This document shows, piece after piece, positions 7,416 to 24,622 of a stretch of 25,025 bases of DNA (position 1 is the first letter of the stretch; the number at the start of each line of letters is the position of its first letter). Below the pieces are notes generated by a model. It saw only the letters and a list, made by a program, of their open reading frames with translations, was not told the DNA's origin and did no database searches. The stretch spans positions 1-25,025 of the forward strand of contig JAQVZV010000001.1 in NCBI GenBank assembly GCA_028708005.1. Direction: 5' to 3'. Source of the DNA: Bacilli bacterium. GTDB lineage: Bacteria; Bacillota_I; Bacilli_A; RF39; UBA660. The translations under genes and the position numbers were made by a program.

Positions 7416-7672
7416 TATTTATCGCCTCCTTTGGTTTTTGAACACACATCCAAAACATATGTATCGTTAATAATATCTTCTTTATCAATAATGGGACTAA
7501 TAATATTAGTAGCTGCTACACAATCATCTACATTAATATAAGGATCTTTATCAATTATAATTCTTAAAACATTAGTATTCTCTTCCTTTTGATATGTAAT
7601 AGTATCAATCTTAATATTAATTTCTGCTAAATGCTCCTCAATCAAACGTTTAATAATACTTTCAATTTCCAT
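7415..7672 (-). CDS. rimP: Ribosome maturation factor RimP, N-terminal domain only (85 aa)
   Basis: LRIIIDK, INVDDCVAATNIISPIID and YVLDV match RimP-N; first gene of the nusA operon; stop overlaps the nusA ATG (TAATG). Confidence 0.85.
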   Translation of the reverse strand: MEIESIIKRLIEEHLAEINIKIDTITYQKEENTNVLRIIIDKDPYINVDDCVAATNIISPIIDKEDIINDTYVLDVCSKTKGGDK

Positions 7673-7812: not shown

Positions 7813-8451
7813 ATGAACAAAAAAGTTAAATCAACATTAATTATCCTCTATTACTTTATTTATACGTTCTTCATATATATACCTTTTTCTATCTTAAATA
7901 TTGAAATAGTTGGCGTTCTCTTATTTGGTATATCACTTATTTATATATATCGAGAGGACTTCAAAAATTATCTTGATGATTTTAAAAAAAATGGTCGTAA
8001 ATATTTAAAATTAGGCTTTAATTATTGGATTATCGGACTTTTGATGATGATTGTTTCTAATATTATAATTAGTTCATTATCTCCTATATCTATGCCAGAA
8101 AATGAACAGGCAGTTAGAGAAGCTTTAAAATTAAGTCCTTATATTATATTTCTATCTTCGGTTATTAATGCTCCATTGATTGAAGAATTAATATTTAGAA
8201 AGACACTCTTTGATATTTTTAAAAACAAAACCTTGTTCGTTATCTTTAGTGGATTGTTATTTGGAACATTTCATGTCATTGGCGTTGCAACCTCAATCTA
8301 TAGTTGGTTATATATTATTCCTTATTCAGCATTAGGAATAGCTTTTGCTTATGCCTATACTAAGACAAATAATTTGCTCACACCAATATGCTTACATTCA
8401 TTCCATAATTTTATTACGATTGTTCAAATTCTATTGTTTTTAGGAGGTTAA
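7813..8451 (+). CDS. CPBP (CAAX protease-like, Abi) family intramembrane metalloprotease
   Basis: Multiple TM segments; APLIEELIFR (EExxxR), FGTFH and CLHSFHN motifs; strong RBS. Confidence 0.9.
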   Translation: MNKKVKSTLIILYYFIYTFFIYIPFSILNIEIVGVLLFGISLIYIYREDFKNYLDDFKKNGRKYLKLGFNYWIIGLLMMIVSNIIISSLSPISMPENEQAVREALKLSPYIIFLSSVINAPLIEELIFRKTLFDIFKNKTLFVIFSGLLFGTFHVIGVATSIYSWLYIIPYSALGIAFAYAYTKTNNLLTPICLHSFHNFITIVQILLFLGG

Positions 8452-8452
8452 A

Positions 8453-9334
8453 ATGAAAAGGAAGTACCGTTTAAAGAAAAAATATAAAATCATAATCATT
8501 ACATTAACAATTCTAACCTTAATCCTACTATGGTCTCGATATATAAGCACATCTGGGCTAATAATAAAGGAATATAAAGTAGTTAACGATAATCTGCCTA
8601 CTAGTTTTGATGGATTAAAAATTGTTCATTTATCAGACATTCATTATGGTAGAACGATTAAACAAAAAGAATTAAAACACATGGTTAATGAAATAAACGA
8701 AATAAATCCCAATCTGATTTTCTTCACTGGCGATCTGATTGATCGCGATATTAAATTAACACCCAGCATAAAAAAGGAAGTAATAAACACTTTAAAACAG
8801 CTGGCTCCTACGATTGGTAAATATGCAGTAGCAGGAAATCATGATTTAGCATTTAAAGATTTTGATAATATTCTTACAGCCAGCGGCTTTATTAATCTTA
8901 CAAATGATTATGATCTCATCTATAGTAATAAATATGAAACAATTTATATCGCTGGGCTTGAATCGGAAATTGTTGGAAAACCCAACGCAGATAAAGCTAC
9001 TCAATATTTAAATAACATTCAAGATAAAGATGAAACCGAATCATATAATAATCCCTCATATAAAATACTTTTACTCCATACTCCTGACACAATAAAATTA
9101 GTAGACAAGTATGATTTTAACTTAGTATTGGCAGGGCATTCTCACAATGGTCAAATAAGATTACCAATTATTGGTGCAATAACAAAGCCGCAAGGCGCGA
9201 AACAATTTTATAATCCTTATTATAAAATCAATAACACAGATTTATACATTTCAGGGGGATTAGGAACCTCTACAATGAACTTTAGGTTATTCAATAAACC
9301 ATCATTTAACTTTTATAGATTAGTAAAAAAATAA
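8453..9334 (+). CDS. Calcineurin-like metallophosphoesterase (YkuE-like) with N-terminal membrane anchor
   Basis: LSDIH, TGDLID, AGNHD, LLLHTPD and LAGHSHNGQ metal-binding motifs; basic-then-hydrophobic N-terminus. Confidence 0.9.
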   Translation: MKRKYRLKKKYKIIIITLTILTLILLWSRYISTSGLIIKEYKVVNDNLPTSFDGLKIVHLSDIHYGRTIKQKELKHMVNEINEINPNLIFFTGDLIDRDIKLTPSIKKEVINTLKQLAPTIGKYAVAGNHDLAFKDFDNILTASGFINLTNDYDLIYSNKYETIYIAGLESEIVGKPNADKATQYLNNIQDKDETESYNNPSYKILLLHTPDTIKLVDKYDFNLVLAGHSHNGQIRLPIIGAITKPQGAKQFYNPYYKINNTDLYISGGLGTSTMNFRLFNKPSFNFYRLVKK

Positions 9335-9369: not shown

Positions 9370-9396
9370 ACCTTTAATTCCCTCCCTCATACAATA
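9370..9396 (+). promoter_or_regulatory. Candidate sigmaK-dependent promoter
   Basis: AC(9370-71)-16 bp-CATACAATA(9388-96) exactly fits the B. subtilis sigmaK consensus AC-16/17-CATANNNTA; the -10 also fits sigmaE (CATACAHT). Confidence 0.6.
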
Positions 9397-9415
9397 AAAT
9401 GAAAGGAGAGATATA

Positions 9416-9595
9416 ATGTTTGGATTAGGACGTCCTTTTATGTTTGGCAGAAGGCCCGGCTTTGGCTACGGGTTTGGTCGCGGTGGTTTCTTTTTGCCTT
9501 TTACACTTGGAGCTGTAACAGGAGCAGCTTTAACGCCTTATTACAGACCATACTATCCGCCATACTTCCCGCCATATTATCCATATCTTTATTAA
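9416..9595 (+). CDS. Small Gly/Phe/Pro/Tyr-rich protein, YmaG-like spore coat protein (59 aa, absent from the ORF track)
   Basis: AAAGGAG RBS, ATG 9416, TAA 9593-95. MFGLGRPFMFGRRPGFGYGFGRGGFFLPFTLGAVTGAALTPYYRPYYPPYFPPYYPYLY has the GRPF/GFGYGFGR, small-residue helix, then YP-rich tail architecture of B. subtilis YmaG. Confidence 0.85.
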   Translation: MFGLGRPFMFGRRPGFGYGFGRGGFFLPFTLGAVTGAALTPYYRPYYPPYFPPYYPYLY

Positions 9596-9597
9596 TA

Positions 9598-9628
9598 TTA
9601 AAAATCCTTACTAAAAGGATTTTTTTAA
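9598..9628. terminator. Bidirectional terminator between the YmaG-like gene and the kinase
   Basis: AAAAATCCTT-ACTAA-AAGGATTTTT with A and T tracts on both sides; overlaps the kinase stop codon. Confidence 0.7.
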
Positions 9629-10849
9629 TGGTAAAAAAATGGTTACCCTTGTTCCCACATTGGATTTTGACTTATATTCGATATGCCCTTCGTGGGCTAC
9701 GATTATTTCGTTAGAGAATTTTACCCCTAACCCAGTTCCACTTTTTTTAGTTGTAAAAAAGGGTTCCCCAATCTTTTTTAATTGTTCTTTGGTCATACCT
9801 ATACCATTATCAGCTATTATTATAACTAATGATTTAGATGTTGTTTTAACGTTAAATTTTATTACCCCCTTTTTATCATATGGAATAGCTTCTACTGCAT
9901 TCTTTATAATATTTATAAAGACTTGTTTTAAACGATTATAATCCCCTTCAATATATTGTTCTTCGTCAATTAGGGAACAATCGAATTTTATTTTTCGGCC
10001 TTGGAATGTTAAACTTGATATTTCTAAAACATCTTGTAAAAGAACTGATATATCCATTTCTCTTTTTTCAACTTTTAATTTAGTAAGCATCATAAAATCT
10101 TCCATCAGCGTTAGAGTTCGCTCTATCTCTTGTTTAATGATAGGAATATACTTTTTTACATGATTATCATTATTAGTATCAAACATATCTAAATAGCCTT
10201 TGCAAACAGCTATAGGGTTTTTTATTTCATGTGTGATTTTGAACAAGGAATCCCTCAATTGTTTCTGATGTTCTAATTCTTTCAACGTCATATGAAGATT
10301 CATAGTTTTTTCACTTTGATCCATAAAATAACAAATTAGATGAGTAGTAACATAAAAAGATAATGATAAAATAAAAATTTCGTTGATCATATCTAAGCGA
10401 CTATTGATAAAATTATATGGTTCAATAATAATAAATGCTATTTTTATTATTGTAAAAACACTAATAATTGTTATTTTACTTTCATTTCGTCTTTTCAATA
10501 TATATATAAATATAAAGTATATTAAAAATTCAACAATAACATAAATTGGATTTATCTTTAATGAATAAACATAGTATAAACCGACACATAAAGAAAAGAT
10601 TATAATAGCAAGTTTCTTGCTTTTTAAATAGGCAATTAAAAGCGGAACAGTCAGTAACATCATTCTAATCGCAACATGAGGTGTATCACATTTAAGAATG
10701 AGATATAAAGACGTATAAAGCGCGAAGTCAAACAAGATATTTCTAGCCCTAGCACTTAAATTATGCTCACTAGTTGCAAATAAAAAATAACTAAATAACG
10801 GAAACAATATAAAAACAGAATTTAAAAACAACGTTTCTATAATATTCAT
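9611..10849 (-). CDS. Orphan membrane sensor histidine kinase, KinB-like (sporulation kinase type)
   Basis: About 5-6 N-terminal TM segments starting MNIIETLFLNSVFILFPLFSY (compare KinB MEILKDYLLHICFILFPILLY); H-box HEIKNP, N-box NIIKNAVEA, G1 DNGIGM, F-box FFTTK, G2 GTGLG; start set at ATG 10849 (GGAGG upstream); no adjacent response regulator. Confidence 0.85.
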   Translation of the reverse strand: MNIIETLFLNSVFILFPLFSYFLFATSEHNLSARARNILFDFALYTSLYLILKCDTPHVAIRMMLLTVPLLIAYLKSKKLAIIIFSLCVGLYYVYSLKINPIYVIVEFLIYFIFIYILKRRNESKITIISVFTIIKIAFIIIEPYNFINSRLDMINEIFILSLSFYVTTHLICYFMDQSEKTMNLHMTLKELEHQKQLRDSLFKITHEIKNPIAVCKGYLDMFDTNNDNHVKKYIPIIKQEIERTLTLMEDFMMLTKLKVEKREMDISVLLQDVLEISSLTFQGRKIKFDCSLIDEEQYIEGDYNRLKQVFINIIKNAVEAIPYDKKGVIKFNVKTTSKSLVIIIADNGIGMTKEQLKKIGEPFFTTKKSGTGLGVKFSNEIIVAHEGHIEYKSKSNVGTRVTIFLPLKKSF

Positions 10850-10893
10850 TCCCTCGCCTCCCATTGTCATTATAAATAGTTAAAGTGTAATAT

Positions 10894-10902
10894 TTTGTCG
10901 AA
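10894..10902 (+). promoter_or_regulatory. Spo0A box (0A box) upstream of the kinase
   Basis: TTTGTCGAA is a perfect TGTCGAA core with the extended TT; about 45 bp upstream of the kinase ATG and 21 bp upstream of a minus-strand TATAAT (10869-10874). Confidence 0.55.
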
Positions 10903-10980
10903 AAATAAACTAATTAAATGAATAATGGTGGATATTGATTTGTTTTTTGATTATTTGTCAGATATTATCCTTTCACAAAC

Positions 10981-11007
10981 AAAAAAATAATCAATGATTA
11001 TTTTTTT
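10981..11007. terminator. AT-rich inverted repeat / likely terminator after the EIIB-like gene
   Basis: AAAAAAATAATC-AAT-GATTATTTTTTT overlapping the EIIB stop codon. Confidence 0.5.
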
Positions 11008-11315
11008 AAGTCGTCGATATACTTCTTTAGCTTATGGCCATCTGTTCCTAAAATGATTTTTAATTGATTATCTATCTCCACAATCCCTTTGGCTCCTAAT
11101 CGTTGAATAGCATCTTTATTGACGATCGAAACATCCTTAAGTGTTACCTTGAATCTCGACATATTTACTTCGATGCTTATAATATTATCTTTGCCACCTA
11201 AATACTCAACCAATTTATTAGCTTCAATGTGAAAGTCTTTCTTATTAGCTTTTATAACAACCAAAGCTATTATTACTAATACAACTACTATAATTAAATA
11301 TTGTATATATTGCAT
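10998..11315 (-). CDS. Stand-alone PTS EIIB (glucose-family fold) with N-terminal TM anchor, lacking the catalytic Cys
   Basis: LGGKDNIISIEVNMSRFKVTLKD aligns with the EIIB motif LGGxxNIxxxxxCxTRLR; Cys position is Asn (codon 11163-11165); start ATG 11315 with AGGTGA RBS; TATAAT at 11333-11338. Confidence 0.8.
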   Translation of the reverse strand: MQYIQYLIIVVVLVIIALVVIKANKKDFHIEANKLVEYLGGKDNIISIEVNMSRFKVTLKDVSIVNKDAIQRLGAKGIVEIDNQLKIILGTDGHKLKKYIDDLKK

Positions 11316-11366
11316 TCTTATCACCTGTTCATATTATACTATAAATATATCTAAAATAAAACCAAA

Positions 11367-11378
11367 ATATAGGTATTC
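11367..11378 (+). promoter_or_regulatory. GerE-type binding site upstream of the cotY/Z-like gene
   Basis: ATATAGGTATTC is 12/12 to the GerE consensus RWWTRGGYNNYY, ending 7 bp upstream of the putative sigmaK -35. Confidence 0.45.
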
Positions 11379-11385
11379 CATATAC

Positions 11386-11412
11386 ACTCTTTTATTATCA
11401 ACGAATATGTTA
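11386..11412 (+). promoter_or_regulatory. Candidate sigmaK-dependent promoter (one mismatch)
   Basis: AC-16 bp-AATATGTTA (consensus CATANNNTA) 33 bp upstream of the cotY/Z-like ATG. Confidence 0.45.
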
Positions 11413-11444
11413 TTATTGAAAATAAATAAAGGGGTGGAATATAT

Positions 11445-11891
11445 ATGTGTAACAATAATACAGATTGCAAGTGCATAAGTGATATATTAAAGGTTATTAA
11501 TATTCTTCAAAAGAAAGCTTCTCGTCATGACGAGTGCGAAGATATCTGCGATCGCAGAACACTTGGTCCTACTTGCTTCGAAGAATTTAACACAAGGCCA
11601 GTTCAACTATTCTTATGCTGCAATAACGGAAATGAACCTTTAATAATGCCAACTACTAAAGGCCCAATAACACAAACAACTTGCTTTTCAGATGTATTCA
11701 GAGTAGAGAAAGTTGATGACTGCTGTGCTACTTTTAGAGTCCTAAAACAAAAACAAAAAGTAGATGGAGGAGCAGATTTGAATATAAGCTGTTGGGAACA
11801 CTTTGAACCAACTTGCTCTTTCTTTACACTCGATCTAAAATGTGTCTGCATTATTAGATGTTTAGAGGATACTTTCGTAGATTGCTTATAA
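11445..11891 (+). CDS. CotY/CotZ family cysteine-rich spore coat/crust protein
   Basis: 148 aa with 17 Cys; CISDILKVINILQ, NTRP, FRVEKVDDCCATFRVL and DLKCVCIIRCL match the CotY/CotZ pattern; GGGGTGG RBS. Confidence 0.88.
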   Translation: MCNNNTDCKCISDILKVINILQKKASRHDECEDICDRRTLGPTCFEEFNTRPVQLFLCCNNGNEPLIMPTTKGPITQTTCFSDVFRVEKVDDCCATFRVLKQKQKVDGGADLNISCWEHFEPTCSFFTLDLKCVCIIRCLEDTFVDCL

Positions 11892-11892
11892 T

Positions 11893-11922
11893 AAAGAGAC
11901 CACAAATAAATGTGGTCTCTTT
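11893..11922. terminator. Bidirectional intrinsic terminator
   Basis: AAAGAGACCACA-AATAAA-TGTGGTCTCTTT, a perfect 12-bp stem between convergent genes. Confidence 0.85.
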
Positions 11923-11925
11923 TTG

Positions 11926-12252
11926 TTAAAACCTTATATCTCTTATATCATTAATATCAATTGATTCTTCATCTATCGTTATAAGTTTGTTATTCATCAT
12001 TCCAATAATATCTTTGTGTATTATAGATTTATCTTTTAAGGTAATAATTGTGCTCATTTTATAAACATAATTAGGAGAACTAAACATTTCGTCTATCTTT
12101 TCTTTAACATCTTTAGTATTCGTCTCGGAGATATCAATATAGTCATTTCTTTCTTTCGTCTTATATTCTAAAGCCGAATAAAATACCGTATCATTGTTTA
12201 CTATTTTCTTTTCAATTTTATTGACATAAAGATCAGGCAGCTTTTTTTTCAT
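11926..12252 (-). CDS. Hypothetical protein (108 aa), candidate sporulation protein
   Basis: AAGGGTG RBS; acidic/basic soluble protein with beta-rich C-terminus; perfect sigmaK-type promoter upstream; shares a terminator with the cotY/Z-like gene. Confidence 0.75.
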   Translation of the reverse strand: MKKKLPDLYVNKIEKKIVNNDTVFYSALEYKTKERNDYIDISETNTKDVKEKIDEMFSSPNYVYKMSTIITLKDKSIIHKDIIGMMNNKLITIDEESIDINDIRDIRF

Positions 12253-12275
12253 ATATCAACACCCTTATCTATAGG

Positions 12276-12302
12276 TATTTTATGCATCATTATTTCAAAA
12301 GT
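12276..12302 (-). promoter_or_regulatory. Candidate sigmaK-dependent promoter
   Basis: Minus strand (GCA)AC-16 bp-CATAAAATA is an exact AC-16-CATANNNTA; overlapped by a GerE-like 12-mer CTATAGGTATTT (12269-12280, 11/12). Confidence 0.6.
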
Positions 12303-12354: not shown

Positions 12355-13497
12355 ATGATGAAAAGTGTTTCAAAATATAAAGTTGAACTTGGCATTGTCA
12401 TTCCACTTATTCTTTTTTTTATCATAAGTATCCTGACCATCTATAGTGCTGGAAATATAATTCCCAGCACCATGGGAAACATTGCTTTAAAACAAACTCT
12501 ATGGTATATAGTGGGATTTGCAATCGCATATTTTATTATGTATATAGGTGTGGATTACTTGCTTAAATACGCATGGTTTCTTTATGGAACGGGCGTTTTA
12601 AGTCTTGTCTTATTATTGTTTATAGGAACCCCCATAAATGACGCTAGATGTTGGTTCGCCATTGGTAACATTGCCACCATCCAACCTAGTGAGTTTATGA
12701 AAGTGTTCCTTATCCTCGCCTTAGCAAAAGTCATTGATGAATTTAACACCAGCAACTCAAAGCCAACTTTGAAAGAAGAATTTTATTTATTAATAAAAGT
12801 TTTTATTATTGCAGCTATCCCATCTGTTTTGACATTTCTTCAGCCTGATACAGGCATTGTAATAATTTACTTTTTTATAACAATGACGATGTTATTAATT
12901 TCTGGTATACGATATCGCTGGTTTGTAATCATTTTTAGCATTATATTATCCATCGGAGGCATTTTCCTAAGCCTATATTTCTTTAAAAGCGACCTTTTTA
13001 TTAATATCTTTGGGACAAACTTCTTCTATAGGGTCGATCGTCTATTGGATTGGCAAAGTGGTGACGGAATGCAATTAGGTAATGCTATGACAGCAATTGG
13101 TAGTTCTGGACTGTTTGGTTTTGGATTAAAGGGAACCCCTATTTATTTCCCTGAAGCACATACTGACTTTATCTTTTCGGTATATGCTAGTAACTTCGGT
13201 TTAATAGGCTCTACTTTTCTAATTGGGTTGCTTACCTTCTTCGATTTAAAAATAATAACTATAGGGCTTAAAAGCAATCAAAATAGCAATAAGTATATCA
13301 TTGCAGGTATCACAGGCATGCTCTTATATCAACAAGTCCAAAGTATTGGTATGAATATAGGTCTATTACCAATTACAGGAATAACACTTCCCTTTATTAG
13401 TTATGGCGGATCGAGTCTTTTAAGTTATATGATTATCGCAGGTATTATCTTTAATTTATCTAATCAAACCCTAAGATTCTGGAATATAAAAAAATAA
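12355..13497 (+). CDS. rodA: SEDS family peptidoglycan polymerase, RodA-like
   Basis: About 10 TM; IQPSEFMKV, LQPDTG, FPEAHTDFIFS and GLLPITGITLPFISYGGSSLLS; overall pattern closest to B. subtilis RodA (FtsW/SpoVE not fully excluded). Confidence 0.85.
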   Translation: MMKSVSKYKVELGIVIPLILFFIISILTIYSAGNIIPSTMGNIALKQTLWYIVGFAIAYFIMYIGVDYLLKYAWFLYGTGVLSLVLLLFIGTPINDARCWFAIGNIATIQPSEFMKVFLILALAKVIDEFNTSNSKPTLKEEFYLLIKVFIIAAIPSVLTFLQPDTGIVIIYFFITMTMLLISGIRYRWFVIIFSIILSIGGIFLSLYFFKSDLFINIFGTNFFYRVDRLLDWQSGDGMQLGNAMTAIGSSGLFGFGLKGTPIYFPEAHTDFIFSVYASNFGLIGSTFLIGLLTFFDLKIITIGLKSNQNSNKYIIAGITGMLLYQQVQSIGMNIGLLPITGITLPFISYGGSSLLSYMIIAGIIFNLSNQTLRFWNIKK

Positions 13498-14518: not shown

Positions 14519-15649
14519 ATGAAGGAATGGAAACATTTATCAATAGATCAAAGAAAAGTTATTTCCTCAGGAATATCTCATAATTATAAATTAAAAAATA
14601 TTGGTGAAGCTTTAGGTTTTGATCCAACGAGCATTTCAAAAGAAGTTAAAAGAAATAGAATTGCTATTACTGTTGGACTAAATATAAATAATTGTAAAAG
14701 AGTTAATAGGTGGCCTTATGTTTGTTCTGGATGTAATAAAAGATATAATAATTGTCCATTTACTAAGTATAAATACGATGCACAGTCCGCACAAAGGAAA
14801 GCTGATGTCAATTTAATTAACTCTAGAAAAGGTTTAGATATTGACTCTGATACTTTTAAAAAGTTAGATGAAACTATTAAAGAAGGTATTGAAAACAAGA
14901 AATCTCTTTATCAAATAAAAATAGAAAACAAAGATAATATTGATAAATCTATAACTACATTATATAGATATGTAAATAATGGTTATTTAACTACTAAAAG
15001 AATGGATTTACCTTATGCAGTTACTTATAAAAAAAGGAAGCACAATAAAAAGTATGAATACTCCGAAAATAACAATATTGACAGGAGTGGTCATACTTAT
15101 CTTGATTATCTGGCTTATTTACATAAGCATCCAGGAATCTACGTCTGGCAACTAGATTTCCTTGGGTCTATAAAGACAGATAACAATAATATTCTATCAT
15201 TTATGTTGCCTAATTTGCAATTTATTATTATAGATTTGATAAAAAGTCCAAATTCAGAAAAAGTAGTTTCTTTTTTTGACAATCTTGAAGAAAGAATTGG
15301 AATCGATGCATTTATAGAATTAATCCCAGTTATTTTAACAGATAGAGATCCTAACTTTACAGATATTAATGGGATTTGTTTTTCAAAAGCCACTGGTGAA
15401 GAAAGATGTAAGTTATTTTTCTGTGATCCATATGTATCTAATCAAAAACCAAATGTAGAAAATGTTAATAAACAGCTTAGATTATTTTTCCAAAAGGGAA
15501 AAACAATAGATAAATATCAAAAAAAAGATATTAAAAACATAAATCAAACACTACTTAATAGACCATTAAAATCTTTAGATGGAAATACTTCAAAAGAAGC
15601 ATTTATTAAAGTATTTGACGAGGAATTATTTAGTAAATTGTTTAATTAA
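14519..15649 (+). CDS. IS30-family transposase (376 aa)
   Basis: N-terminal KHLSIDQR...SISKEVKRN HTH; DDE triad in WQLD, ILTD and QKPNVENVNKQLR (IS30 signature QKxxxExxNxxxR). Confidence 0.92.
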   Translation: MKEWKHLSIDQRKVISSGISHNYKLKNIGEALGFDPTSISKEVKRNRIAITVGLNINNCKRVNRWPYVCSGCNKRYNNCPFTKYKYDAQSAQRKADVNLINSRKGLDIDSDTFKKLDETIKEGIENKKSLYQIKIENKDNIDKSITTLYRYVNNGYLTTKRMDLPYAVTYKKRKHNKKYEYSENNNIDRSGHTYLDYLAYLHKHPGIYVWQLDFLGSIKTDNNNILSFMLPNLQFIIIDLIKSPNSEKVVSFFDNLEERIGIDAFIELIPVILTDRDPNFTDINGICFSKATGEERCKLFFCDPYVSNQKPNVENVNKQLRLFFQKGKTIDKYQKKDIKNINQTLLNRPLKSLDGNTSKEAFIKVFDEELFSKLFN

Positions 15650-15871: not shown

Positions 15872-17309
15872 CGTTAGTTTTTATTTGGAATTCCGTTTTA
15901 ATGTAGAAAACTGAAATAAGTGTGGTTATAATAAGATTTATGTTTCTTTGCCATGAAGGAGGATAAAAAAAATGAAGGAATGGAAACATTTATCAATAGA
16001 TCAAAGAAAAGTTATTTCCTCAGGAATATCTCATAATTATAAATTAAAAAATATTGGTGAAGCTTTAGGTTTTGATCCAACGAGCATTTCAAAAGAAGTT
16101 AAAAGAAATAGAATTGCTATTACTGTTGGACTAAATATAAATAATTGTAAAAGAGTTAATAGGTGGCCTTATGTTTGTTCTGGATGTAATAAAAGATATA
16201 ATAATTGTCCATTTACTAAGTATAAATACGATGCACAGTCCGCACAAAGGAAAGCTGATGTCAATTTAATTAACTCTAGAAAAGGTTTAGATATTGACTC
16301 TGATACTTTTAAAAAGTTAGATGAAACTATTAAAGAAGGTATTGAAAACAAGAAATCTCTTTATCAAATAAAAATAGAAAACAAAGATAATATTGATAAA
16401 TCTATAACTACATTATATAGATATGTAAATAATGGTTATTTAACTACTAAAAGAATGGATTTACCTTATGCAGTTACTTATAAAAAAAGGAAGCACAATA
16501 AAAAGTATGAATACTCCGAAAATAACAATATTGACAGGAGTGGTCATACTTATCTTGATTATCTGGCTTATTTACATAAGCATCCAGGAATCTACGTCTG
16601 GCAACTAGATTTCCTTGGGTCTATAAAGACAGATAACAATAATATTCTATCATTTATGTTGCCTAATTTGCAATTTATTATTATAGATTTGATAAAAAGT
16701 CCAAATTCAGAAAAAGTAGTTTCTTTTTTTGACAATCTTGAAGAAAGAATTGGAATCGATGCATTTATAGAATTAATCCCAGTTATTTTAACAGATAGAG
16801 ATCCTAACTTTACAGATATTAATGGGATTTGTTTTTCAAAAGCCACTGGTGAAGAAAGATGTAAGTTATTTTTCTGTGATCCATATGTATCTAATCAAAA
16901 ACCAAATGTAGAAAATGTTAATAAACAGCTTAGATTATTTTTCCAAAAGGGAAAAACAATAGATAAATATCAAAAAAAAGATATTAAAAACATAAATCAA
17001 ACACTACTTAATAGACCATTAAAATCTTTAGATGGAAATACTTCAAAAGAAGCATTTATTAAAGTATTTGACGAGGAATTATTTAGTAAATTGTTTAATT
17101 AATTAAACAATTTGTTGGCAGAGAAACAAAGTACCAAAACGGAAGTAAGTTTAAAAAACGGACTTTAGTCTGTTATTTTAGCGTGCGATGATATTAAAAC
17201 TTTTATATAAATTAAAGGACTTATTTCCGTTTTTGTTATACTTTTTCGGAAATAAGTCTGATATTCTAATATTTTTATTGAAAAACTGCATTTACTCTAA
17301 AAATTTACG
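15872..17309 (+). mobile_element. IS30-family insertion sequence, copy 2 (1438 bp)
   Basis: Appears identical to copy 1 (same protein; non-coding ends matched by eye). Confidence 0.9.
15972..17102 (+). CDS. IS30-family transposase (376 aa), identical to copy 1
   Basis: Same translation as 14519-15649. Confidence 0.9.
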   Translation: MKEWKHLSIDQRKVISSGISHNYKLKNIGEALGFDPTSISKEVKRNRIAITVGLNINNCKRVNRWPYVCSGCNKRYNNCPFTKYKYDAQSAQRKADVNLINSRKGLDIDSDTFKKLDETIKEGIENKKSLYQIKIENKDNIDKSITTLYRYVNNGYLTTKRMDLPYAVTYKKRKHNKKYEYSENNNIDRSGHTYLDYLAYLHKHPGIYVWQLDFLGSIKTDNNNILSFMLPNLQFIIIDLIKSPNSEKVVSFFDNLEERIGIDAFIELIPVILTDRDPNFTDINGICFSKATGEERCKLFFCDPYVSNQKPNVENVNKQLRLFFQKGKTIDKYQKKDIKNINQTLLNRPLKSLDGNTSKEAFIKVFDEELFSKLFN

Positions 17310-24301: not shown

Positions 24302-24622
24302 TTATTGTTTATCAGCAGACAAATATTTAATTATTTCTGGTGAACTCATATTTTGTTTAACCATAAACGAGCCCGTTTTCAGCTCATCAATACTATTGAT
24401 TTTCAAATATATTTTAAACACTTTAGGATTCCTGATTAGCTTTTCAGCATAAAGAGTGGTCGCTACTTCATCCATATTGTGACCATCTTTAATTTGGATT
24501 TCCTTTTCTTCTATATTATTACTAACAGGGCTCAGATAATAATTAAATAATGAGCCTACAATAATAATGAAAAAACTTAAGGAAAAAAAGAGAAAAACAG
24601 CGAAATCTCTAAACCTTTTCAC
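24302..24622 (-). CDS. Truncated MltG/YceG (TM plus LysM-like N-terminal region only; catalytic domain absent); possibly a pseudogene
   Basis: 106 aa, GTG start with no clear RBS; TM followed by IQIKDGHNMDEVATTLYAEKLIRNPKVF...LKTGSFMVKQNMSSPEIIKYL, as in the MltG N-terminus; occupies the yrrL(mltG) slot between DUF1292 and trmR. Confidence 0.7.
   Translation of the reverse strand: MKRFRDFAVFLFFSLSFFIIIVGSLFNYYLSPVSNNIEEKEIQIKDGHNMDEVATTLYAEKLIRNPKVFKIYLKINSIDELKTGSFMVKQNMSSPEIIKYLSADKQ

Follow-up and report, generated by a model that had tools for sequence, protein, structure and literature searches.

It is likely that a late outer-coat module and a kinase for the initiation of sporulation lie side by side in the tiny genome, about 1 Mb, of an endospore-forming, uncultured Bacilli bacterium. 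The stretch analysed, hereafter the window, is 25,025 nucleotides long and belongs to an assembly of 0.83 Mb; its segment 9370-12302 holds a small gene for a 59-aa protein, a HisKA kinase gene, an EIIB-like gene, cotZ and a cotO-like gene (Table 1). Gene identities, synteny, the conservation and enrichment of promoter motifs, and the gene inventory are direct observations. An initial annotation had described a Bacillus-type sporulation cluster in an organism with truncated rimP and mltG, and both of these genes are indeed truncated in the window. The locus is real, yet systems of its kind are already known.

Among relatives, the block reads CAAX-phosphoesterase-small gene-kinase-EIIB-cotZ-cotO-rodA, an order conserved down to 35-45% amino-acid identity. 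Several genera have no kinase, phosphoesterase and CAAX genes at the locus, and the order there is cotZ-EIIB-cotO-rodA; the kinase, missing there in roughly one genus out of three, is no fixed part of the cluster. Is the neighborhood then meaningful, or are these real genes whose order was simply frozen in a reduced genome? Frozen order is a plausible, if not the favored, account: each gene comes with a terminator and a promoter type of its own, housekeeping genes (rodA, the CAAX protease and the phosphoesterase) are interleaved, and in several genera the kinase, phosphoesterase and CAAX genes are gone from the locus. However, the pairing of cotZ with cotO is found in B. subtilis as well as in three families or more, which exceeds recent inertia. 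The B. subtilis genes cotO (BSU_11730) and cotZ (BSU_11740) are adjacent, with consecutive locus tags (PMC7725329); therefore, the pairing is ancestral, inherited from a common ancestor with Bacillus, and the earlier view of genes dispersed in B. subtilis and newly clustered here does not hold. With the cotZ-cotO pair excepted, frozen order is largely absorbed into the best explanation: the stretch is probably neither one operon nor a dedicated "sporulation island", and is better seen as a stable neighborhood of two kinds of sporulation genes.

Table 1. Genes, promoters and terminators in segment 9370-12302 of the window
Feature	Positions	Strand	Details
Mother-cell promoter of small coat-like gene, sigmaK/sigmaE-type	9370..9396	+	AC-N16-CATACAATA; end 19 nt 5' of ATG
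59-aa Gly/Pro/Tyr/Phe-rich protein, candidate coat protein	9416..9595	+	conserved PF-LGA-TG core, Pro/Tyr tail
Bidirectional hairpin terminator, small gene and convergent kinase gene	9600..9627		-8.2 and -9.1 kcal/mol per strand, z -2.4 and -3.8
Orphan histidine kinase	9611..10849	-	~6 TM segments followed by HisKA (H-box SLFKITHEIKNP) and HATPase_c
Kinase promoter region	10869..10902	-	0A box TTCGACA (10896-10902), 21-nt spacer, TATAAT (10869-10874)
Membrane-anchored EIIB(Glc)-fold protein, without phospho-accepting Cys	10998..11315	-	fifth gene, not in the earlier list
GerE-type box	11367..11378	+	ATATAGGTATTC (fits RWWTRGGYNNYY); 8 nt upstream of cotZ -35 "AC"
cotZ promoter	11386..11412	+	AC-N16-AATATGTTA; CATA in remoter relatives
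CotY/CotZ-family cysteine-rich outer-coat (crust/exosporium basal layer) protein	11445..11891	+	Pfam Spore-coat_CotZ
Bidirectional hairpin terminator between convergent cotZ and cotO-like gene	11893..11925		-17.8 and -19.0 kcal/mol, z -7.1 and -8.5
Short CotO homologue, 108 aa	11926..12252	-	disordered N-terminus, then C-terminal helix and five-strand Sm-like barrel
Mother-cell promoter of cotO-like gene	12276..12302	-	AC-N16-CATAAAATA; end 23 nt 5' of ATG

As for the coat genes, the CotY/Z assignment is confirmed by Pfam PF10612 (E 1.1e-13; 52 bits, cut-off 24; match to model positions 8-159 of 159; 49.4 bits in a six-frame search). The protein, with 148 aa and 17 Cys, fits a cysteine-rich small protein of about 150 aa, and CotZ was detected in 53 of 60 genera of the family; on the spore surface, it may self-assemble as a disulfide-linked lattice.

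Its convergent neighbor, which adjoins cotZ in families f1, f6 and f7 as well, had been listed as a hypothetical. This 108-aa reading frame is conserved among relatives and is identified as a short CotO homologue. The link is transitive. The protein of the window itself is below every Pfam CotO threshold (no match to PF14153 at E<=5). Sub-threshold matches to PF14153 occur in 6/23 and 11/63 members of its family (best E 9.2e-6), and no other family recurs among the matches of the 63. In another family of genomes, the cotZ/rodA slot holds a 112-aa protein that passes PF14153 (37.7 bits, cut-off 35), and hhalign joins the 108-aa family to this protein with 97.2% and 97.8% probability (E 3e-11 and 9e-13). 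The fold of the 108-aa family agrees with residues 150-223 of B. subtilis CotO; model positions ~93-180 of 182 are covered, so this is not the full-length architecture of about 227 aa found in B. subtilis.

How could these genes act together? The proposed first module would comprise cotZ and the short cotO homologue, convergent upon a common terminator, and the lineage-restricted Gly/Tyr/Pro-rich small gene nearby. Late in sporulation, sigmaK would drive the coat genes, with GerE joining at cotZ; CotE would recruit CotO, which may aid the assembly of the Cys-rich CotZ into an outermost crust- or exosporium-like shell.

The control suggested here starts from the promoters. Motifs of the type AC-16-[C/A]ATA, claimed near three starts, were all located (Table 1). 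The motif is conserved in 3/3 orthologue lineages for the small gene (including L011 and the L015 group) and in 7/7 for cotZ (chance 2-9% each), while the -10 of the cotO-like gene, CATAAAAT, is conserved in 5/5. Across the whole window, the loose motif AC-N16-[C/A]ATAnnnTA is found 7 times with 4.9 expected, which is not above chance, and the rate first given for it (4e-5 per position) was about 2.5 times too low. The genome-wide scan of the strict motif, ending 14-25 nt 5' of a start codon, returned 9 sense and 0 antisense occurrences, with 0.42 in shuffles; the genes concerned are small and include spoVIF and a yqfQ-like gene, while gerE has the motif further upstream. The cotZ -10 of this genome begins with A, not C, and it ends 32 nt before the ATG, outside the 14-25 nt class. 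The arrangement of the sigmaK promoter class (AC, 16-17 nt, CATAnnnTA) is found upstream of each of the three genes, and promoters of the form AC-N16/17-CATAnnnTA are predicted to be late mother-cell, sigmaK-type, and transcribed by sigmaK.

Another reading is that sigmaE, or an extra SigE/K-like paralogue, reads the CATA-type promoters, which would make the three genes early or middle mother-cell genes. The -10 elements of the two sigma factors are nearly the same, CATACAATA fits that of sigmaE too, and the genome encodes SigE and two more SigE/K-like factors. In addition, mother-cell transcription of cotO begins early in B. subtilis, and distant orthologues of the cotO-like gene lack the "AC" and have instead a sigmaE-like TCATNTT 13-14 nt upstream; for the 108-aa gene, sequence alone does not distinguish sigmaK from sigmaE. 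However, the same motif precedes gerE in five genomes and also spoVIF, both sigmaK-dependent in B. subtilis, and the cotZ promoter has a conserved GerE-type box, so that reading by sigmaE is rather unlikely. The TAGGT core of this box, to which GerE is predicted to bind, is conserved in 7/9 aligned cotZ promoters (alignment A1). Both regulatory boxes of the initial annotation, GerE-type and 0A, are in place and conserved in orthologous promoters.

The 59-aa protein is a candidate coat protein. Its orthologues are conserved and lineage-restricted, and it matched no Pfam or NCBIfam family. The label "YmaG-like" reflects composition alone, and homology to YmaG, which is poorly represented outside B. 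subtilis (PMC7725329), is unlikely; a word-based search was uninformative. An Atlas lead (0.88) points to a 95-aa "spore coat protein" cluster.

What does the rest of the genome hold? The assembly encodes SpoIVA, the spoIIGA-sigE-sigG set, SigF-like, SigH-like and two further SigE/K-like sigma factors, SpoIIID, GerE, CotE and SpoVA (SpoVAC/EB), and it carries a SASP gene. Of the genes proposed for checking, the sigma genes, spoIVA, gerE and spoIIID are therefore present, sigF and sigK as "-like" genes. Spo0A is missing from this assembly because contig C114 breaks 5 nt short of the expected spo0A start; it was detected in 18 of the 18 relatives searched. With this loss confined to a contig end, and with the motifs conserved upstream of orthologues, the proposed late sporulation program stands: the organism almost certainly keeps a full endospore program, including a late mother-cell regulon of sigmaK/GerE type and an outer layer based on CotZ.

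The literature cautions that the presence of sporulation genes is no proof of sporulation (PMC10868615). The lineage might no longer sporulate, its genes being relics or re-used, as in Spo0A-positive asporogenous Firmicutes; no spoIIAB is seen between the spoIIAA-like and sigF-like genes, and spore observations are nil. Yet dozens of sporulation genes are intact, with proteins and promoters conserved across the genera of a family with genomes of 0.7-1.5 Mb, and this speaks against relics because useless genes are quickly lost from such small genomes. Near-identical DNA from landfill, sludge, wastewater, fermentation and digester samples (at least 11 studies) fits a dispersal stage, without proving one. 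We regard loss of sporulation as very improbable.

The second module concerns initiation, and here "Bacillus-type" applies less well. The kinase is the sole HisKA kinase in the assembly, the other HATPase matches being GyrB/ParE-type or of MutL size, and seemingly the only orphan kinase found in the genus. "KinB-like" describes its architecture alone: the design of six TM segments, HisKA and HATPase_c stands, whereas the sensor (residues 1-200) matches no NCBIfam or Pfam model, KinB included, and the whole protein matches generic kinase models only, far below their cut-offs. The phosphorelay proteins proposed for checking were not recovered: no single-domain receiver of Spo0F size was found in G000, G001 or G002, from the genus, and the genus gave no SPOB_a match for Spo0B. 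All the genomes compared are MAGs, 86-93% complete within the genus, and because they are incomplete, Spo0F, Spo0B and other kinases should be taken as not found rather than absent. Because neither relay protein was found, the kinase is predicted to phosphorylate Spo0A directly and is probably the sporulation switch-on kinase. Initiation therefore looks phosphorelay-less, and it is the late mother-cell regulon of the "Bacillus-type" claim that holds.

Could the partner be some other response regulator, unassembled or unrecognized? The incompleteness of the assemblies leaves room for one, and 20 of 60 genera, a third, yielded no kinase orthologue at E<=1e-30 while retaining Spo0A; in these, therefore, other kinases must act. 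Against this, no response regulator adjoins the kinase in any of about 40 genomes. The congener G002 has two receivers in all; one of them, a LytTR regulator, has a partner kinase of its own, which leaves the other, Spo0A, as the only unpaired one. The kinase promoter also has an invariant 0A box, and a partner other than Spo0A is improbable. In 7/7 orthologous kinase promoters (alignment A4), neither the sequence TTCGACAA at the 0A box nor the -10 varies. Genome-wide, the 7-mer shows no enrichment (10 intergenic copies, 9.0 expected), and it is conservation that supports the box as a predicted Spo0A site. Its position over the -35, 21 nt from a TATAAT-like -10, would imply that Spo0A~P feeds back on the kinase, with either sign.

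An intriguing addition is the EIIB-like gene, the most conserved gene at the locus. It occurs in 30/30 and 58/60 sampled family genomes at 55-90% identity, usually precedes the kinase, stays the divergent neighbor of cotZ even where the kinase is gone from the locus, and is also close to cotZ in two other families. Speculatively, and against the odds, its product may be an unrecognized sporulation component: either a sensor of nutrient or PTS state that modulates the Spo0A kinase, or a membrane factor for outer-coat assembly. If true, this protein and the sole kinase would together make up an initiation circuit that is close to minimal and lacks a phosphorelay, in Bacilli of a lineage with ~1-Mb genomes.

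Several known systems invite comparison. At the B. subtilis cotO-cotZYXWV crust locus, as here, a gene of the Cys-rich CotZ family adjoins one of the CotO family; the sigmaK-type promoter and GerE-type box at cotZ recall the sigmaK/GerE control of cotYZ, and CotE, SpoIVA, SpoVIF and GerE are likewise encoded elsewhere in the genome. In contrast, there is a single cotZ here (two tandem copies in some relatives), with no cotX, cotW or cotV nearby; the neighbors are rodA and the EIIB-like gene, and CotO, reduced here to ~108 aa, covers the second, C-terminal half of the Pfam model. In the B. cereus/anthracis exosporium, CotO joins the CotE-covered coat to a self-assembling, Cys-rich shell of CotY/ExsY type, and all three protein families are shared (PMC6222130); no sign of an interspace, BclA-type nap or cap is seen here, and the predicted layer may be either a crust or a detached exosporium.

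With the clostridial direct Spo0A kinases, the kinase shares its orphan state, a Spo0A that is the sole unpaired receiver, and a setting in which Spo0F and Spo0B were not found. It differs in belonging to Bacilli, where the phosphorelay is the rule, in a six-TM sensor without PAS, and in that phosphotransfer is a prediction here. Like B. subtilis KinB, it has six TM segments followed directly by HisKA and ATPase domains; unlike KinB, its sensor has no likeness detectable by profile models, and neither a Spo0F target nor a KapB- or KbaA-type partner was recognized.

Finally, sporulation in reduced Bacilli has already been predicted (Field 2024, PMC10868615): spore formers among reduced Firmicutes were proposed in RF39, RFN20 and ML615J-28 (PMC10868615) and in UBA1242 (PMC12306168). 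The present lineage resembles them in its ~1 Mb genomes that retain spo0A and stage genes and, like the RF39 of Field et al. (PMC10868615), has spoIIGA while spoIIAB is not seen. According to those surveys, coat proteins and the sensor kinase were mostly lost (PMC10868615, PMC12306168), whereas the present lineage has CotE, CotO, CotZ, SpoVIF and a candidate kinase, with conserved promoters. What is new is that reduced Bacilli have kept a CotE-CotO-CotZ module.

The locus (9370-12302) is on one 25-kb contig of assembly G000, which has 0.83 Mb in 140 contigs (86% complete, 30% GC). The genes discussed here, both from this region and from other contigs of the assembly, are collected in the table.

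Features of the window contig and of other contigs (C-numbers) of assembly G000
Feature	Contig	Position	Strand	Remarks
rimP	window	7418-7672	-	N-terminal domain alone, 85 aa
CAAX-type protease	window	7813-8451	+	
TM-anchored metallophosphoesterase	window	8453-9334	+	
Small ORF	window	9416-9595	+	59 aa, Gly/Pro/Tyr/Phe-rich
Histidine kinase	window	9611-10849	-	~six TM segments, directly followed by HisKA + HATPase_c
TM-anchored EIIB(Glc)-fold protein	window	10998-11315	-	
CotZ-family protein	window	11445-11891	+	Pfam 52 bits vs cut-off 24, full model; 17 Cys/148 aa
cotO-like ORF	window	11926-12252	-	108 aa
RodA-like SEDS protein	window	12355-13497	+	
IS30-type HTH_38 transposase	window	14519-15649	+	376 aa
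IS30-type HTH_38 transposase	window	15972-17102	+	376 aa
mltG/YceG-like ORF	window	24305-24622	-	106 aa, positions 1-65 of 275-position model
SpoIIAA-like STAS and sigF-like genes	C122	1753-2777		
GyrB/ParE-type gene	C88	4740-6662		full-length
GyrB/ParE-type gene	C138	1430-3343		full-length
GyrB/ParE-type gene	C94	146-2053		full-length
Small ORF	C4	10082-10342		motif-preceded
Small ORF	C31	2043-2273		motif-preceded
Small ORF	C33	598-789		motif-preceded
Small ORF	C52	14-502		motif-preceded
Small ORF	C114	475-681		motif-preceded

The CotZ assignment is solid. The SEDS gene was also considered as spoVE, which was rejected (RodA 255 bits vs SpoVE 161); with RodA best-scoring and a TATAAT-like hexamer ahead of the gene, seen by eye and unscored, it is taken as rodA. 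For the 59-aa protein, a word-based homologue search returned a single uninformative match, and all Atlas leads were below 0.9. Folding gives each of two convergent gene pairs one strong hairpin, serving as common terminator; scanning the region for generic sigma-70 promoters and terminators missed both hairpins and produced 22 promoter-like sites against 21.9 expected. The initial annotation described housekeeping genes as truncated, and rimP and the mltG/YceG-like ORF are both indeed shortened. The two transposase genes are identical and stand in tandem beside lon.

What, then, is the 108-aa "hypothetical"? The profile evidence identifies it as a putative short CotO homologue. Its family comprises 641 cluster representatives (E<=0.001) with members of ~100 aa, among which PF14153, the CotO family of Pfam, is matched by 6/23 and 11/63 members (best E 9e-6), and no other Pfam family recurs. 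Residues 150-223 of B. subtilis CotO rank third among reviewed proteins in the match to the model of the 108-aa protein. In a genome from another family (G024), the same slot holds a 112-aa protein, encoded convergently to cotZ with rodA next in line, that passes the PF14153 cut-off and matches the profile of the 108-aa family with an hhalign probability of 97-98%. In the structure model the N-terminus is disordered and is followed by a helix and a five-strand Sm-like barrel; a Foldseek search of the PDB finds generic Sm/Hfq-like barrels only (E>=0.02). The protein's profile links to CotO and its synteny led to rejection of a reading as an RNA chaperone. The genes of the locus had been called dispersed in B. 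subtilis; this fails for cotO and cotZ, whose tags BSU_11730 and BSU_11740 are consecutive (PMC7725329), and the pairing is therefore taken as ancestral. Since the assembly also encodes CotE, it has the complete CotE-CotO-CotZ axis that has been described for the crust of B. subtilis and the exosporium of B. anthracis (PMC6222130, PMC7725329).

Close and middling relatives share the synteny of the full block, and several genera have the order cotZ-EIIB-cotO-rodA without the kinase side. The constant members are cotZ, the cotO-like gene, rodA and the EIIB-like gene. The best conserved of the locus is the EIIB-like gene (58/60 genera, 55-90% identity), and every orthologue of its product has N, S or D in place of the phospho-accepting Cys. 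The gene remains the divergent neighbour of cotZ even without the kinase, and lies within 1-3 kb of cotZ in two other families. Are the EIIB-like protein and the kinase an obligate pair? Of the 40 genomes found to have both, ~36 carry the two genes side by side and in the same direction; the idea is weakened by at least six genera in which EIIB stands between cotZ and the cotO-like gene with no kinase, and by weaker TM-EIIB proteins that occur in non-sporulating families too. A predicted complex of the two scored 0.00, which is no verdict and counts neither for nor against the pairing.

The promoters of the locus point to mother-cell control. Three AC-N16-[C/A]ATAnnnTA matches had been reported close to gene starts, and all three are in place; over the whole window the motif occurs 7 times against 4.9 expected, which is not above chance. 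Upstream of the cotZ orthologues it is present in 7/7 lineages (chance 2-9% each), and it precedes the orthologues of the small gene in 3/3; for the 108-aa gene, the CATAAAAT -10 is kept in 5/5, and the intergenic DNA around the conserved motifs has otherwise diverged. Genome-wide, a strict version of this sigmaK-type promoter (AC-N16/17-CATAnnnTA), placed so that its end is 14-25 nt from a start codon downstream, is found 9 times in sense and 0 times in antisense orientation, compared with 0.42 times in shuffles (maximum 3 among 300). The nine genes behind it encode 59-162 aa; spoVIF (PF14069) and a YqfQ-like gene are among them. The stand-alone gene gerE (68 aa) has the motif as well, 48 nt ahead of its start, and does so in five genomes. 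A perfect match to the GerE consensus lies 8 nt upstream of the "-35 AC" of cotZ, and the TAGGT core is present in 7/9 aligned promoters. No RNA run is among the listed public runs that contain the locus sequence. Five ORFs of 63-162 aa, without a Pfam family, have the strict motif 14-23 nt before their start codons; this puts them in one promoter class with spoVIF and the yqfQ-like gene, and they are candidates for new spore-coat proteins of the lineage.

The assembly encodes SpoIVA (E 3e-109), SpoIIID, GerE, SpoVAC/EB and SASP; spoIIGA, sigE and sigG are consecutive, and a SigF-like factor follows a SpoIIAA-like STAS gene. Eight sigma-70-family genes are present in 0.83 Mb (contigs C12, C61, C68, C81, C96, C122 and C131): RpoD, a second RpoD/RpoS-like, SigE, SigG, SigF-like, SigH-like and two extra SigE/K-like paralogues. 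The assembly gave no Spo0A_C match, and the domain occurs in 18/18 other genomes of the family, both congeners included; genome sizes across the family are 0.7-1.5 Mb. In one of these, G002, spo0A ends 5 nt before the homology to our assembly starts, at the extreme end of contig C114 (position 4981). True absence of the gene was rejected because its expected place falls just past this end; the gap is thus an assembly break, not gene loss, and suggests that the assembler breaks at spo0A.

How would sporulation be initiated? The window kinase had been named KinB-like, which suits only its architecture, since its sensor domain matches no model. Orthologues occur in 40/60 genera (E<=1e-30). The promoter carries TTCGACAA, a predicted 0A box, with a TATAAT-like -10 21 nt downstream, invariant in 7/7 orthologues, and one lineage has tandem boxes 10 bp apart. 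Genome-wide the 0A 7-mer shows no enrichment, so conservation alone argues for the box. The other HATPase_c matches in the assembly are three GyrB/ParE-type proteins and one of MutL size, and the one other receiver, a LytTR regulator, has a kinase of its own. In G002 (93% complete), Spo0A and the LytTR regulator are the only two receivers, and the genus yielded neither a Spo0F-size receiver nor a SPOB_a match. This leaves the window kinase, by elimination, as the predicted direct kinase of Spo0A. On contig C122, the STAS gene is preceded, at a distance of 54 nt, by a perfect 0A box, and it overlaps the sigF-like start with no spoIIAB between the two genes. The lineage may lack the anti-sigma kinase SpoIIAB, as reported for RF39 by Field et al. 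(PMC10868615), who saw spoIIGA and not spoIIAB, a pattern that our assembly appears to fit. As a separate observation, the ~1-Mb genome has three full-length GyrB/ParE-type genes where two are expected; the third may be a paralogue or reflect strain mixing or bin contamination.

At least half of the sampled 31-mers from 9370-12302 are contained in 19 listed public runs, from landfill, sludge, wastewater, fermentation and anaerobic-digester metagenomes, and near-identical DNA comes from at least 11 studies besides the likely source; no listed gut run is among the 19. The organism thus seems to belong to engineered anaerobic systems and not to the gut, and the retained sporulation features could be the means by which a bacterium that is metabolically dependent gets from one landfill, sludge or digester to another.

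The general interpretation, sporulation in reduced Bacilli, is already known: it was predicted in the orders RF39, RFN20 and ML615J-28 (Field et al., PMC10868615), and sub-1-Mb genomes with sporulation genes were noted in UBA1242 (PMC12306168). Most coat proteins, along with the sensor kinase, are described as lost in reduced Mycoplasma-related orders of Bacilli (PMC10868615), and surveys report the CotE-CotO-CotZ module missing outside Bacillaceae-type Bacilli (preprint 10.1101/2022.02.25.481979). What appears new, from sequence, is the retention of this module with a sigmaK/GerE promoter code, and one-kinase initiation with a predicted 0A box. Across a whole family of ~1-Mb genomes this outer-layer axis, GerE and SpoIIID are retained, as is a sigmaK promoter code that can still be recognised, and the late regulon definable by motif is very small (~9-13 promoters in the assembly, several ahead of small proteins of unknown function). 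Such a regulon and a putative single initiating kinase make these bacteria candidate organisms in which to define a minimal endospore programme; the direct phosphorylation of Spo0A proposed here would follow the clostridial design, not that of Bacillus.
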